Origin: Naegleria gruberi
Taxonomy: Eukaryota
Assembly: GCA_000004985.1 (NCBI GenBank)
Contig: GG738900.1
Reading direction: 5' to 3' (one strand)
Length of the DNA stretch: 64,000 nucleotides
This document shows, one piece after another, positions 5,343 through 48,353 of the stretch (position 1 is its first letter; the number at the start of each line of letters is the position of its first letter). The notes under the pieces are model-generated. The model worked only from the letters and a program-made list of their open reading frames with translations, ran no database searches and was not told the origin of the DNA. The translations under genes were made by a program, and so were the position numbers.

Positions 5343-5465
5343 TAATTTATAATAATAAAGAATTTAATTGAAACTCTCTAGGTATCCCAACAACATCCAA
5401 ACAAAACACAAACAGATATATACCACTAACAGTCCATTAAGGATAAATATTCATAATGAATGTAT

Positions 5466-5537
5466 TCCCGTGTAGTCCAATGGCTAGGATACCTGGCTTT
5501 CACCCAGGAGGTCCGGGTTCAATTCCCGGCATGGGAG
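5466..5537 (+). tRNA. tRNA-Glu (anticodon UUC)
   Basis: 72-nt cloverleaf TCCCGTGTAGTCCAATGGCTAGGATACCTGGCTTTCACCCAGGAGGTCCGGGTTCAATTCCCGGCATGGGAG with anticodon loop CTTTCAC. It is followed by a T-run typical of a Pol III terminator. Confidence 0.85.
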
Positions 5538-5580
5538 AATACTTTTTAATGTTGATAAAACCAATTTTATTTGGTATTGA

Positions 5581-6621
5581 TTAAGGAATTTGGAGAATAA
5601 TTTTTCCAACAGTTCTATTGGATTCACTCATTTTTTGAGCTTGTGAGGCTTGATCCAAACTTAGAATATGAATTGGAATGTCTTTCCATAAACCACTTTC
5701 ACTCAACCACTTTAAGATAACTGCCAATTGATCACCATCCCTTTCAGCATACAAATTTTTGGCTCTTTCACTTCCAAAAACCTTTCCAGAAATTCCTTGA
5801 GGTGTGTGAACAATTGTAACAAATTGTGATTCTTCATCTTGTTTGAGCAATTCAATGGAATAGTATTCTTGATAGGATCCAACAAAATCCAACACTATAT
5901 CAAAGGTACCTTTCAAAGATTCCAATTCATGAGTGAGATATTCCTTTCCCTTAGTGTAATCTAACACTTGATCAGCTCCCAACTTTCTAACAAAGTCTGC
6001 ATTCTTTGCTGATGAAATGGTAACAATCTTTTCAGCATTGAAATAATTCTTGGCAAGTAAAATACCTGACATTCCAACACCACCACTTCCACCAATGATT
6101 AGAACTTGTTTTCCTCTCAAGGAGTCTTTTTGTCCACTCTTACTTGATGGATGTCTGAGGAAACATTGAAAAGCAGTCAAGAAAGTTACTGGACACGAGG
6201 CAGCAACTTGATGACTAATTGATTCTGGATTAAGAGCTGCTTGAGATTCAGAGCAGACAACATATTGACTGTATGTTCCTCTGATGTGTGTCATGTTACA
6301 ACCACAAACTGAATCACCAATCTTGAATTTGGTTACTTTGGAACCAGTGGCAACTACAATTCCACTAACTATTCGAAGGTAAGAATGAAAAATATTAAAC
6401 TTACAATCAACTCCAAGAATCGTTGGATATGAATTAATATAAAACCCATATTGTCTTACTTTACAATCTAATGGATTAACTCCAGCATATTGATTTCTAA
6501 CAAGAATGTCATCTTCATTCAATTGTGGTAAATCAAATTTATGGTCAATTACAATGTCATCAGCACTGACATTGGCAGATTTAATAATTGCAGCAGTTTG
6601 AAAGGTTGGAAGACTTGACAT
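5581..6621 (-). CDS. zinc-type alcohol dehydrogenase-like / quinone oxidoreductase (MDR superfamily)
   Basis: NAD(P)-binding motif LIIGGSGGVGMSGILLAK and an N-terminal GroES-like region. A probable 36-nt in-frame intron (gtaagtttaatatttttcattcttaccttcgaatag) lies at about 6372-6407 on the minus strand; removing it restores the conserved ILGVD-VSGIVVATGSKV motif. Confidence 0.8.
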   Translation of the reverse strand: MSSLPTFQTAAIIKSANVSADDIVIDHKFDLPQLNEDDILVRNQYAGVNPLDCKVRQYGFYINSYPTILGVDCKFNIFHSYLRIVSGIVVATGSKVTKFKIGDSVCGCNMTHIRGTYSQYVVCSESQAALNPESISHQVAASCPVTFLTAFQCFLRHPSSKSGQKDSLRGKQVLIIGGSGGVGMSGILLAKNYFNAEKIVTISSAKNADFVRKLGADQVLDYTKGKEYLTHELESLKGTFDIVLDFVGSYQEYYSIELLKQDEESQFVTIVHTPQGISGKVFGSERAKNLYAERDGDQLAVILKWLSESGLWKDIPIHILSLDQASQAQKMSESNRTVGKIILQIP

Positions 6622-7009
6622 TTTAGAGATGTGTATTCTTTTTTTATGATTTGAATTTTGAATTGCTTATCCAGTTAAAAAAGTTGACTTGTTTTTATAG
6701 TGTTTTGAAAAGTGTGCGCAGCAGAAATAATGTATTCTATCGCGGTAATTAAGCAACCAATCAGAAATGGAGCGCTGATTTTGGGATATTTTGACTTTCG
6801 CAAGGTTAATTTTTGATTTTCTTGTCAAGGTTCACCATCACCAGCAAATAGCTGTATTAGTAGCTGTAGTTCTTTTACTTGCTTTTGTAAAGTTCATACT
6901 TTACAAAAAAAATGCTCAAACGGAATGAAGGAGGCCGAGTTGTGATTTTCTTGGATTTTTCTTTGGAATCAAATTTGCTTTTGCAAAAATTCAAAGACAA
7001 ACTACATCA

Positions 7010-8698: not shown

Positions 8699-8933
8699 TT
8701 ACCCATTATGTGAAACCTTACTAATTTGAATTTGTCTTTATTTTGGATAAAGTATTGAAACTAGGAAGCTCAGCAAACTTCAACACTCTTCTTTTTATAA
8801 TTTTTAAAATGTATGCAATAATGTAGCAAGTACATGATATTTATGAAATTATAATTCCAATTTTCATTATTATTAGTAATTATTCCCATTTCTTTATTTG
8901 TCCATTAAGGATAAATTTTCAAAATAAATGTAT

Positions 8934-9005
8934 TCCCGTGTAGTCCAATGGCTAGGATACCTGGCTTTCACCCAGGAGGTCCGGGTTCAATTCCCGGCAT
9001 GGGAG
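8934..9005 (+). tRNA. tRNA-Glu (UUC), second identical copy
   Basis: Identical 72-nt sequence to the copy at 5466-5537. About 35 nt of upstream flank is also shared. Confidence 0.85.
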
Positions 9006-9091
9006 AATACTTTTTTAATTATGGACTTTTAATATTGTTAAAAATTAATTTTATGTTACCACATGAGGTATTGAATAATTTAGAATTTGCA

Positions 9092-10187: not shown

Positions 10188-10220
10188 TGTATGATTGTTT
10201 AAAAGTTATTAAGGTAAAAA

Positions 10221-10340
10221 GACTACAGCACCACAGGTTCCCAAGTTGTCTCCAACCTCAGTACTGATGTGGCTCGACGATGCTTACCTTCTCAAATCGG
10301 ACGGGATGAGATGCATTCATCGTGATATGGCCGTAGCCAT
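10221..10340 (-). rRNA. 5S ribosomal RNA gene
   Basis: The minus-strand sequence is (AT)GGCTACGGCCATATCACGATGAATGCATCTCATCCCGTCCGATTTGAGAAGGTAAGCATCGTCGAGCCACATCAGTACTGAGGTTGGAGACAACTTGGGAACCTGTGGTGCTGTAGTC followed by TTTTT. It matches the eukaryotic 5S consensus, including box A, the loop-C region and the ...GGTGCTGTAG 3' end. Confidence 0.9.
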
Positions 10341-21476: not shown

Positions 21477-21697
21477 GACGGGAAGCCTGCCAGGAATATG
21501 ACGACAATCCCGCTACAGTCTTTGACTGTATGAACAGTGAAGGCAACGAAGACAGAATCTTGTTGGTTCAGGTTTTGTTTGAAGAAATTGTTAAAGTTGA
21601 TCAACCTCATATTTATTGAACATTTGTCATGTTGAAATGCATGATGCAAATTTTGGTTTCTCATATTCTGATCAATTCTAAATTGAAACTTCATTAT
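21477..21697. repeat. copy 1 of a ~230-bp conserved element of unknown nature (other copy at 44032-44270)
   Basis: The first ~70 nt (gacgggaagcctgccaggaatatgacgacaatcccgctacagtctttgactgtatgaacagtgaaggcaa) differs from copy 2 by 2 nt. The remainder is about 75-80% identical, with conserved blocks gttgatcaacct..tatttattgaacatt, tgatgcaaattttggtttc, tctgatcaa and attgaaacttca. Confidence 0.7.
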
Positions 21698-21716
21698 TTA
21701 CAATTTACTGAATTAT

Positions 21717-22004
21717 TTACAAGTTTTTAGATTTGGTAATTTTCTTAGTTGTGGTAGTAGATTGTTTAGCTCTCTTTTCAATTGAATTTTTAGAAGATCT
21801 TTTCACTGAAATTTGTTTACCATTTAAATTTGCATGATGATAATCAATATTATTACGATGTCTAGTTCCACTTATAATATTTGAAGTATCAATATCAAAT
21901 AATGGTAATCTTTTAGATAAATCAATTGGTTTAGATCTTGTCCATTCTGTTTTTGTTGGAATTCTATCTTCGGAAGAATGTGATGAAGTATTTCTAGCTG
22001 GCAT
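21717..22004 (-). CDS. small Ser/Asn/Thr-rich protein (95 aa), paralog of 22228-22443
   Basis: True ATG (MPARNTSS...). The motif DIDTSNIISGTRHRNNIDYHHANLNGK is shared with the divergently transcribed neighbour. Confidence 0.45.
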   Translation of the reverse strand: MPARNTSSHSSEDRIPTKTEWTRSKPIDLSKRLPLFDIDTSNIISGTRHRNNIDYHHANLNGKQISVKRSSKNSIEKRAKQSTTTTKKITKSKNL

Positions 22005-22227
22005 TTTGCTCTTAGTTCTTGTTATTAGGTTGTTTTGTTTTGTTGTGGAAATTTCATCATCCTATACCAGTTATCTATTTATTTCCATATTGATTTCCAC
22101 TAATTTTGTGATTCCGATTTTTAGTGGATTTTCCACTCATCACAAGAATTTGAATTTTTCTATTAATATTAAGGAAATTTAATGAAAATCAACAAACAAA
22201 AGAAAATAACAAAATAACAATAAGAAA

Positions 22228-22443
22228 ATGGTCTCAACAAGAAGAAATATGTATAATTCCTCCAATAATACTTCACAATTTAATTCCGAAATTTCTCTGG
22301 ATAATATTATTGGTGGAACAAGAAGAAGAAATTTAATTGATTACAAAACATTGAATTCTATTGGAAGTGAAACAAGCAAAACTTCCAAATCTCAATCACA
22401 TAACACTTTAGAAATGAGAAACAAACAATTCAAAATGTGGTAA
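22228..22443 (+). CDS. small Ser/Asn/Thr-rich protein (71 aa), paralog of 21717-22004
   Basis: True ATG (MVSTRRNMYNSSNN...). It contains EISLDNIIGGTRRRNLIDYKTLNSIGSE. The two motif regions are about 70% identical at the nucleotide level. Confidence 0.45.
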   Translation: MVSTRRNMYNSSNNTSQFNSEISLDNIIGGTRRRNLIDYKTLNSIGSETSKTSKSQSHNTLEMRNKQFKMW

Positions 22444-23243
22444 TCTCCATTTAACTCAAAATTTTGTAAACCTAGGCATTCATTGTAAATAAACCCAAAA
22501 TATTGATATAAAGGAATACTCTCCTAATCAAATAAATTGTCTTATTCAACAATATCGTTCCGTTTCAATAGCATAATAACAAAGAGTTGCATTCCTCCTC
22601 TTAATTTCCTTATCGTTAACTTTTCCATTATGAATCGTTTTTCCAAAGTAACTAGTTCTGCCAGTTTTAAAATGTAAGCAGTGTATTCAATTTTTAAATT
22701 GCAATAATGTACATGTTGTTTATCCTCATTGAAACATAATGAAATGAATTCCTTTTTGAAAAGAAGATTTTGGGATTCCTATTTACTTTGATATCACAAC
22801 ATCCATACATGCATGTTGAATGAGAGGGTGTTTACATGTCCGTGTAGTTTTTTTCATCATTGGCGGTTCCAAAAGTTACAACGAGTTCCCATCTAATTAT
22901 TTTAAGCAACACGATCAAGAGGGTTAAATGAGAATATTGTAAACTAATATCTCCCTTTTCCCTATGTGTTGTTATGAGTTCTATTCGATAGTTAGATGAT
23001 ACTGAGGTGTTACCATTCCTCTTACTGACTTCTCAATAAGGTTGTTCCACAAATGTTCAACCAATTCAATTCTCAGAAAACCATTGAACTCTATTAAACT
23101 CCATTGTAAATATTGTAATCTTACTCAGTCAAAATTACTATAAATTCAAATTGACAATTCTTTTTGATAAAAACAAAACAAACAAACAATAATATTCAAT
23201 ATTGAATTGTATCTGAAAACTCCTCAACAAACTTAAACTCAAA

Positions 23244-23780
23244 ATGACTCAACAAACTCACGAAGAATTATTCAATGAAAACATGTGTGGAAGTGGTTTG
23301 GCATTCAAGAAGGTAGTTTGTGAATTATTCAACAATCGTATTGTCCCTGCGACCAAGAATCTTCAACAAGTCAACCCAAAGATGATCATCTTGTTGGATT
23401 GGGCTTCTCTTGCTGCATTGCCAAGTGAAACCAAATACAAGTATGGTGATAGATTTGTTGAAGATACCCTGTTGAATAATTGCATCAAATTCTTAATTGA
23501 AAGTCCAAGATTGAGCAATATGAGTGAAATTGCCAAGGTTTTCATCAAGGATCCTGATTGTAAGGAAGTTTTTATGGGATTGGAAAAGTTGATTTTCAGA
23601 GTTGTACACAATGCTGATAGTAAGGAATCTTCAGGTTTCCTTGGATATTCTTACAAGGTTAATGGTACTGATTTGGTTGTCACTTTGGATTGCAATTTGA
23701 CTCTTGTTATGAAGGTTGCCAATGAAAGACAAAGCCCAACTGCTGATTCAGAAGCTAAAAAGTTGATTAATGCTTTCTAA
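23244..23780 (+). CDS. hypothetical 178-aa protein
   Basis: Clean single ORF with a true ATG. No family recognised. Confidence 0.45.
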   Translation: MTQQTHEELFNENMCGSGLAFKKVVCELFNNRIVPATKNLQQVNPKMIILLDWASLAALPSETKYKYGDRFVEDTLLNNCIKFLIESPRLSNMSEIAKVFIKDPDCKEVFMGLEKLIFRVVHNADSKESSGFLGYSYKVNGTDLVVTLDCNLTLVMKVANERQSPTADSEAKKLINAF

Positions 23781-23856
23781 TTTTTTAAATGGCAGTACTC
23801 TATGAATCAACATTGATTTACCTAATAAAAAACCTTTATTTTTGAATTGTCAAAAA

Positions 23857-23976
23857 GACTACAGCACCACAGGTTCCCAAGTTGTCTCCAACCTCAGTAC
23901 TGATGTGGCTCGACGATGCTTAACTTCTCAAATCGGACGGGATGAGGTGCATTCATCGTGATATGGCCGTAGCCAT
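23857..23976 (-). rRNA. 5S ribosomal RNA gene (second copy)
   Basis: It differs at 2 positions from the copy at 10221-10340 and has the same minus orientation and the same T5 terminator. The flanks are unrelated to those of copy 1. Confidence 0.9.
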
Positions 23977-44031: not shown

Positions 44032-44270
44032 GACGGGAAGCCTGCCAGGAATATGGCGACAATCCCGCTACAGTCTTTGACTGTATGAACAGTGAAGGCA
44101 AGAGTTCTGGACGAATCTTGTTGTGTTTAAATAACAGGTTGTTGAGGAAATTCAATAGGTTGATCAACCTTGTATTTATTGAACATTGATTCGCTGAATT
44201 GCTTGATGCAAATTTTGGTTTCATATTTTCTGATCAAATCTAAACTAAATTGAAACTTCAGCTTATTGGA
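44032..44270. repeat. copy 2 of the ~230-bp conserved element (see 21477-21697)
   Basis: See copy 1. It has the same orientation and the same position relative to its neighbours: about 120 bp downstream of the stop codon of a plus-strand gene. Confidence 0.7.
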
Positions 44271-48040: not shown

Positions 48041-48146
48041 ATCTTTACCCGTAACAAATAAATCAATTAAACAATTCGTTCACTCTTAATATCATTAATT
48101 TTTAGCCATTTCCAAATCCTTTTAGTCGGTTGGCAAAGAAAACAAA

Positions 48147-48235
48147 AGGCGACTGAGGGAATTGAACCCTCGACCCTCAGTTATCTCAGCATTACTGCCT
48201 ACAAGACTGATGCACTGCCACTGTGCTAAGCCGCC
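48147..48235 (-). tRNA. intron-containing tRNA. By my cloverleaf reading the anticodon is UGU (Thr); the isotype is uncertain.
   Basis: The minus strand reads GGCGGCTTAGCACAGTGGCAGTGCATCAGTCTTGTA[GGCAGTAATGCTGAGAT]AACTGAGGGTCGAGGGTTCAATTCCCTCAGTCGCCT, followed by TTTTG. The acceptor, D and T arms are good. A ~17-nt intron lies 3' of position 37. The anticodon stem is TCAGT/ACTGA with loop CTTGTAA. Confidence 0.7.
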
Positions 48236-48353
48236 TTACATGCATCAAAAAAATTATAAAAACCTGTGCTAAAGCAACACATGTCAAACTTTCTTCAAAA
48301 ATTTTCCACTTGAAGTTCAATTAGACATTAGACTTGAAAAAAAAGGCTTTACA

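Follow-up and report, generated by a model that had tools for sequence, protein, structure and literature searches.

Head-to-head genes for small, basic CHZ-motif proteins in Naegleria gruberi and their heterolobosean relatives

We identified a divergent pair of short genes in a 64,000-nucleotide stretch of Naegleria gruberi DNA (GenBank assembly GCA_000004985.1, contig GG738900.1), hereafter the window, which has a G+C content of about 32%. Open reading frame (ORF) 1 (21717-22004, minus strand) encodes a protein of 95 amino acids, and ORF2 (22228-22443, plus strand) encodes a protein of 71 amino acids, both coordinate ranges including the stop codon. An earlier reading of the letters alone (the sequence-only reading) had described these ORFs as lying head-to-head across a 223-bp spacer (22005-22227), each with an ATG start, and the coordinates are confirmed in the sequence. 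The interpretation that we favour, with somewhat better than even confidence, is that ORF1 and ORF2 are two real genes missed by annotation. They are ancient paralogues of each other, probably co-expressed, and their products, small, basic CHZ-motif proteins predicted to be disordered, would dock on H2A-H2B and/or H2A.Z-H2B histone dimers.

The sequence-only reading could assign the shared motif to no nameable domain. Pfam does name it: by profile match, the motif common to ORF1 and ORF2 is the CHZ histone-chaperone motif (Pfam accession PF09649). ORF1 matches PF09649 with 28.6 bits (E = 9.7e-7), amino acids 38-58 aligning to profile positions 9-31 of 34, and passes the curated gathering cut-off of 23.3. 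Independent CHZ matches were found in 16 of the 31 members of the wider protein family described below, in which no other Pfam family recurs. Profile searches of 177,635 PDB sequences placed only CHZ proteins at the top. One search recovered yeast Chz1 (2JSS_B, 6AE8_C and 8QZ0_K), and another, made with the family profile, gave rice OsChz1 (6M2M_M) as its best match, followed by Chz1 (6AE8 and 2JSS). The aligned core in these matches reads IDxxNII-G-R-R--[IV][DN]Y. Only profiles reached Chz1 and OsChz1, and a single-sequence phmmer search of the PDB with ORF1 gave no match.

The CHZ core of ORF1 spans D37-Y55 (21840-21896, minus strand; DIDTSNIISGTRHRNNIDY) and aligns to the yeast Chz1 segment EIDTSNIITSGRRTRGKVIDY. 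The ORF2 core spans E21-Y39 (22288-22344, plus strand; EISLDNIIGGTRRRNLIDY). Together they give the consensus NI[IV]-x-G-T-R-x-R-x-x-[IV]-[DN]-Y. The resemblance between the two proteins is not confined to the 28-amino-acid block of the sequence-only reading. A further shared block on the C-terminal side, which we call block 3, reads S-x-N-[ST]-[IL]-E-x-R-x-K-Q. It corresponds to V67-Q81 in ORF1 (21762-21806, minus strand; VKRSSKNSIEKRAKQ), where it forms a C-terminal flank kept across the family, and to S57-Q67 in ORF2 (22396-22428, plus strand; SHNTLEMRNKQ), of which SHNTLEMRNK is invariant in all ORF2-type orthologues. ORF1 carries an additional N-terminal flank, block 1 (T19-R32; 21909-21950, minus strand; TEWTRSKPIDLSKR), that is found family-wide in alignments A2 and A5 and is missing from ORF2-type proteins.

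The two proteins are 47% identical over 47 amino acids (E = 9e-9; BLASTP with composition-based statistics). Both are rich in serine, threonine and asparagine, as had been described (S+T+N = 35% in ORF1 and 41% in ORF2). The sequence-only reading had itself raised the concern that the motif match might arise from low-complexity composition. The observed Smith-Waterman score is 87, and composition-preserving shuffles gave a mean of 31 (standard deviation 5.7) and a maximum of 72. None of 5000 shuffles reached 87, so the resemblance is not a low-complexity artefact. At the DNA level, the shared core appears as an inverted repeat (21841-21881 and 22303-22343) with 73% identity, or 67% over 42 nucleotides. 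The nucleotide identity of about 70% that had been reported thus holds for the core of some 41-42 nucleotides (67-73%) and drops to 57% over the whole 81-nucleotide block. No further copy was found within the window, where the family hidden Markov model (HMM) matches only ORF1 and ORF2.

Both proteins are strongly basic. ORF1 has 20 lysines and arginines against eight aspartates and glutamates (isoelectric point (pI) 10.7, net charge +12), and ORF2 has 11 against five (pI 10.4, net charge +6). Neither contains an acidic run, and the C-termini read ...KKITKSKNL and ...MRNKQFKMW, respectively. With AlphaFold2 confidence as a proxy for disorder, the proteins are predicted to be intrinsically disordered: the mean predicted local distance difference test score is 57, the predicted template modelling score is 0.13, and the only helix consists of two four-residue turns.

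ORF1 and ORF2 are real protein-coding genes under purifying selection, as indicated by their substitution pattern, their conservation and their kept pairing. We compared them with diverged relatives in environmental assemblies using the Nei-Gojobori ratio of non-synonymous to synonymous substitution rates (dN/dS). This ratio is 0.24, 0.34 and 0.19 for ORF1 (against contigs L001, L003 and L004, respectively) and 0.23 and 0.30 for ORF2 (against L001 and L002). Third codon positions hold an excess of the differences in both ORFs, and the ORF2 orthologues of L001 and L002 are separated by seven synonymous and zero non-synonymous changes. Identity to L001 is 75-80% in the coding regions, 57-58% in the spacer flanks and 47-53% in the 3' flanks. 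Reading frames remain intact at 48-62% protein identity in Naegleria fowleri and in contigs L006 and L007.

These comparisons bear directly on the reading that both ORFs are spurious and resemble CHZ proteins by chance. Short length, an AT-rich genome, a composition rich in serine, asparagine and threonine, and the lack of annotation in the reference would all fit that reading. The shuffle test, dN/dS values well below 1, orthologues with kept pairing in six loci, and the independent match of each ORF to Pfam CHZ speak against it. We regard it as refuted by the comparative data, and the chance that we would still assign to it is negligible.

N. fowleri and four environmental Naegleria-like contigs with full-length copies retain the head-to-head arrangement of an ORF1-type and an ORF2-type gene; one more such contig has a decayed copy. 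The spacer measures 237 bp in L001, 179 bp in L006 and 254 bp in L007, and the pair is likewise head-to-head in L003. In N. fowleri (locus L005; assembly GCA_008403515.1, contig VFQX01000028.1), the ORF1-type gene P0016 (KAF0979072) lies at 6001-6303 and the ORF2-type gene at 5750..5535 on the minus strand, with a spacer of 250 bp. This ORF2-type gene (5535-5750, minus strand; MVCTRSNKGYNNYSSEISMDNIVVGTRQRKQFNY...SHNTLEMRNKTFR) has not been called in the N. fowleri annotation, in which its partner P0016 has been.

The orthology relationships indicate that the duplication is old. P0016 is the N. fowleri orthologue of ORF1, and the orthologues of ORF2 are P0015, P0028, P0030 and the uncalled N. 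fowleri ORF. In a distance tree, ORF1-type and ORF2-type proteins form separate clades, each containing N. gruberi and N. fowleri sequences. Orthologues are 48-62% identical, compared with 35-36% for the two paralogues inside one genome. The inverted duplication is therefore older than the divergence of N. gruberi from N. fowleri, and the two genes have stayed linked ever since. Of the inverted local duplication proposed by the sequence-only reading, the inverted paralogy stands, while a recent local event does not fit two clades that each span both species.

Some observations would fit a different history, in which ORF1 and ORF2 are passengers of a repeated or mobile unit tied to dispersed 5S rRNA genes and their conservation reflects recent copying, not function. 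N. gruberi has at least three copies of ORF1, and decayed copies occur in L002 and L004. The distance from the pair to a 5S gene is 90-240 bp in L001, L005 and L007, and 1.4 kb in the window, where the adjoining 178-amino-acid gene is multicopy. Set against this, dN/dS stays at 0.2-0.3 across synonymous distances (dS) of 0.55-0.87, and both gene types are orthologous between N. gruberi and N. fowleri. The side of the pair on which the 5S gene lies differs between the two clades, the surrounding DNA showed neither terminal repeats nor transposase-like ORFs, and multiple copies are compatible with function, as for histone genes. We consider the passenger history improbable. Whether the linkage between 5S genes and the pair exceeds chance is not settled.

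To identify relatives of ORF1 and ORF2, we searched 1.84 billion cluster representatives with a profile, which returned 26 proteins at E <= 1e-3. The family shares a module of about 70 amino acids with three blocks: block 1 (EW-x-RS-x-P-[IV]-D-x-[ST]-KR), the CHZ core and block 3 (K-R-x-S-x-N-T-[LI]-E-x-R-x-K, or S-x-N-[TS]-[LI]-E-x-R-x-K where membership was assessed). ORF1 contains all three blocks, whereas ORF2 and every ORF2-type orthologue contain the core and block 3 without block 1. The family HMM scores 173.5 bits against ORF1 and 80.0 bits against ORF2. The residues conserved across the 31 family members are those of the CHZ signature (N42, G46, R48, R50 and Y55). One match, P0018 (1005 amino acids, with ten matched stretches and a tandem repeat of about 95 amino acids), was judged by eye to be spurious and repeat-driven.

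All named sources of family members are heterolobosean (N. fowleri, Willaertia magna, Acrasis kona and N. gruberi), and the proteins are annotated as ‘hypothetical’. The sequence-only reading had suggested a small lineage-specific family. A family of small proteins does exist, but the motif itself is pan-eukaryotic and only the extended three-block module looks lineage-specific. Metagenomic family members from distant lineages are single genes without pairing in ordinary cellular eukaryote contexts. A giant-virus origin for them was rejected, as their contigs bear CFAP65, IFT122, TRAPP and His-tRNA synthetase genes. The neighbouring genes are unrelated in these lineages, which restricts the pair to Naegleria and close relatives. 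A scan of JGI metagenome contigs with A3 gave no match.

Family members occur in two forms. The small form has 70-130 amino acids, a pI of 10-12 and a net charge of +6 to +24. The large form has 287-369 amino acids and is acidic overall (pI 4.6-5.9), and in it an acidic linker joins the N-terminal module to a folded SUKH-like C-terminal domain. Larger heterolobosean paralogues, including N. gruberi EFC39767 and EFC50596, W. magna KAL9642586 and A. kona KAL0483377, have the three-block module in common with ORF1. A further W. magna protein, P0032 (KAL9644325; 488 amino acids, pI 7.8, near neutral), combines the CHZ module and a SUKH-like region with a C-terminal Ras-family GTPase domain (Pfam Ras, E = 5e-18). 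P0032 could be a true fusion or the product of two merged gene models.

Published work on CHZ proteins suggests how ORF1 and ORF2 might act. The CHZ motif sits on the alpha-C helix of H2B and extends to the alpha-2 helix of H2A, and deletion of the motif from HIRIP3 abolishes H2A-H2B binding and deposition (PMC10854748). Arginines of the motif touch acidic residues of the histone dimer (PMC3395605). Where the motif occurs without the flanks specific to yeast, the proteins bind H2A-H2B as well as H2A.Z-H2B, with weak, salt-sensitive affinity and without H2A.Z preference (PMC6544321). By analogy, ORF1 and ORF2 would dock on H2A-H2B and/or H2A.Z-H2B through their N-I-[IV]-x-G-T-R-x-R...Y core.

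The flanks suggest that docking may be the main activity of these proteins. To our knowledge, all characterised CHZ chaperones have acidic stretches beside the motif, which cover the surface through which the histones bind DNA. With their basic flanks, ORF1 and ORF2 would be ‘docking-module-only’ proteins that are bound to chromatin, or that compete with or escort other factors, and not classical acidic chaperones. Binding to chromatin would be possible because the H2B alpha-C and H2A alpha-2 face is, we infer, exposed on nucleosomes. Another docking role may be competition or cooperation with the larger acidic CHZ-SUKH paralogues. A role in shielding free dimers seems less likely than docking alone, because the flanks are basic and lack a DEF/Y motif (a run of aspartate or glutamate followed by phenylalanine or tyrosine), in contrast to the acidic flanks of Chz1, HIRIP3 and OsChz1.

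Several points weigh against a pair of functional histone-docking proteins. First, the match of ORF2 to PF09649 (21.5 bits, E = 1.6e-4) falls just under the 23.3 cut-off; we place ORF2 among the CHZ proteins because it is homologous to ORF1 (E = 9e-9) and because 16 of 31 family members match CHZ. Second, the E-values of the PDB profile matches are marginal (0.03-0.3), as the motif is short; each match is weak, and the set is specific. Third, the CHZ region of rice OsChz1 alone fails to pull down H2A-H2B and needs downstream acidic residues (PMC7658359). Stable binding of ORF1 and ORF2 to free basic dimers is likewise not assured, because they carry net charges of +12 and +6 without an acidic run. 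Finally, individual copies appear dispensable, since some have decayed: L004 (whole contig) has lost the N-terminal half of ORF2 including the CHZ core, in L002 (1-130) ORF1 is missing its start codon and about 14 codons at its 5' end, and the ORF1-type gene of L007 (708-974) has lost block 3 in frame.

The closest known counterpart by core sequence is Saccharomyces cerevisiae Chz1 (YER030W; PDB entries 2JSS, 6AE8 and 8QZ0), which is likewise small and disordered and has the near-identical core IDTSNII-SG-R-R--IDY. These similarities, including the alignment of ORF1 DIDTSNIISGTRHRNNIDY with Chz1 EIDTSNIITSGRRTRGKVIDY, would fit functional orthologues of Chz1, acting as soluble chaperones of the classical kind that hand H2A.Z-H2B dimers over to SWR1. 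Chz1 is acidic, however, and depends on an acidic N-terminal flank and a C-terminal DEF/Y motif for its affinity and its H2A.Z preference (PMC6544321). ORF1 and ORF2 (pI 10.4-10.7) lack both the acidic N-terminal helix and the DEF/Y motif and instead have conserved basic flanks of their own (block 1 in ORF1, and block 3). The weak, salt-sensitive and H2A.Z-indifferent binding of CHZ-only proteins (PMC6544321) also argues against this role, and the acidic larger paralogues EFC39767 and EFC50596 in the same genome are better candidates for it. We think it unlikely that ORF1 and ORF2 are functional Chz1 orthologues.

Human HIRIP3 and plant Chz1 proteins (OsChz1, PDB entry 6M2M, and AtChz1) contain the CHZ motif without the yeast H2A.Z-specificity elements and bind both H2A-H2B and H2A.Z-H2B. 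These are proteins of about 470-560 amino acids with glutamate-rich and serine-rich regions, in which the CHZ motif lies close to the C-terminus; binding requires acidic or extended flanks in a domain of about 125 amino acids. ORF1 and ORF2, with 95 and 71 amino acids, consist of the module only and have a central core. By sequence, the two proteins thus fail the defining features of both the fungal Chz1 type and the HIRIP3/plant type of chaperone.

The same basic composition, rich in serine, threonine and lysine, could instead indicate that a CHZ-like core has been re-used outside histone biology, for example in nuclear or nucleolar targeting or in RNA or ribosome binding. The location of the pair near 5S rRNA genes in several lineages and the insufficiency of the rice CHZ region alone for histone binding (PMC7658359) are in keeping with such re-use. 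It fits poorly with the observations that the residues kept across the 31 family members are exactly the CHZ signature, that the larger paralogues fuse the module to acidic, chaperone-like linkers, and that Pfam detected no RNA-binding or other domain. We give re-use for a non-histone role little credence.

Within the docking interpretation, HMGN proteins provide an analogy: they are small, basic and disordered, and a short arginine motif could tether such a protein to the acidic face of H2A-H2B, with the basic flanks turned towards the DNA. The analogy does not extend to sequence, as ORF1 and ORF2 show no Pfam HMG14_17 match at E <= 1, no RRSARLSA motif and no sequence relationship to HMGN proteins. 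A more specific proposal is that the module-only proteins are nucleosome-surface readers of the acidic H2A-H2B face (HMGN-like or LANA-like), microprotein antagonists of the larger CHZ-SUKH chaperones, or both. The linkage of the two genes would then reflect split roles, for example on H2A and H2A.Z nucleosomes, with products made in a fixed proportion. This elaboration is speculative, and we hold it to have only a small chance of being correct.

The spacer (22005-22227) is presumed to act as a shared promoter region. Two half-sites in inverted orientation, TCCACTAA (22096-22103) and TTAGTGGA (22121-22128), are centred at about 22112, some 4 bp off the point midway from one ATG to the other, and the locus is near-palindromic. 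A 50-bp spacer core (22086-22135) containing both half-sites is 72-74% identical to L001-L003, compared with 49-64% elsewhere in the spacer. In the N. fowleri group, the half-site element is recognisable only in part. We propose that ORF1 and ORF2 are probably co-expressed from a bidirectional promoter in this spacer, because head-to-head spacing of 180-250 bp is kept across the genus and the spacer core is moderately conserved. A scan of the spacer for sigma-70 promoters and terminators, which is not applicable to a eukaryote, gave no match.

In organisation, the pair resembles divergent histone gene pairs (H2A-H2B and H3-H4), in that two small genes, here for putative chromatin proteins, have long been kept head-to-head, in this case about 180-250 bp apart. 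Unlike the members of histone pairs, ORF1 and ORF2 are paralogues of each other and not partners of distinct folds.

ORF1 and ORF2 are unannotated in N. gruberi: neither is present in the protein collection, and the flanking genes EFC39317 and EFC39318 are numbered consecutively. The annotated neighbours encode an 821-amino-acid protein (EFC39317), a 178-amino-acid protein (EFC39318) and an E2 enzyme (EFC39319). Two annotated N. gruberi paralogues of ORF1, P0013 (96% identical; its C-terminus diverges after EKR) and P0011 (90% identical), are labelled ‘predicted protein’ and carry a precomputed PF09649 tag. With the window copy, these account for the at least three N. gruberi ORF1 copies noted above.

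The surroundings of the pair contain several repeated elements. 5S rRNA genes lie at 23856-23974 (minus strand, 105 bits) and 10220-10338 (minus strand) in the window. In the relatives, they lie at 6540-6658 and 10370-10488 in L005, at 9978-10096 in L006, at 501-619 in L007 and at the 3' end of L001. In the N. gruberi group (L001), the 5S gene lies beyond the 3' end of ORF2; in the N. fowleri group (L005 and L007), it lies beyond that of the ORF1-type gene. Relative to L001, the window has about 1.25 kb of extra DNA between ORF2 and the 5S gene (within 22444-23855), and this segment bears EFC39318 (23244-23780, plus strand). No Pfam family matches EFC39318, of which different N. gruberi scaffolds bear at least six copies with more than 90% identity. 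Because L001 lacks this gene between ORF2 and its 5S gene, EFC39318 looks like an inserted multicopy, possibly mobile, element.

Directly 3' of ORF1 lies a dispersed repeat of about 240 bp (21477-21698) that is 80% identical to another intergenic region (44032-44267) and has just sub-threshold C/D small nucleolar RNA-like matches in Rfam (E about 0.1). EFC39317 (18844-21309, plus strand) shows weak N-terminal F-box-like and C-terminal ankyrin Pfam hints, both below cut-offs. Elsewhere in the window, two tRNA-Glu(UUC) genes with equal scores lie 3.5 kb apart (5465-5538 and 8933-9006, both plus strand). At 91 nucleotides, a tRNA-Thr(UGU) call (48146-48236, minus strand) exceeds the usual length, and an intron may be present in it.

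In the literature library that was searched, no paper connects Naegleria with Chz1 or HIRIP3. With our analysis, the annotation of N. gruberi gains two genes that had been missed, and that of N. fowleri gains one of ORF2-type. It extends a known motif family and introduces no new principle. A CHZ family is now defined whose named members all belong to Heterolobosea and are listed in databases just as ‘hypothetical’. These deep-branching eukaryotes, whose chromatin is little studied, include N. fowleri, a lethal human pathogen. As proteins consisting of the motif and basic flanks, ORF1 and ORF2 would offer a minimal natural setting in which to study the activity of the CHZ core by itself, be it dimer binding, nucleosome binding or competition with chaperones.

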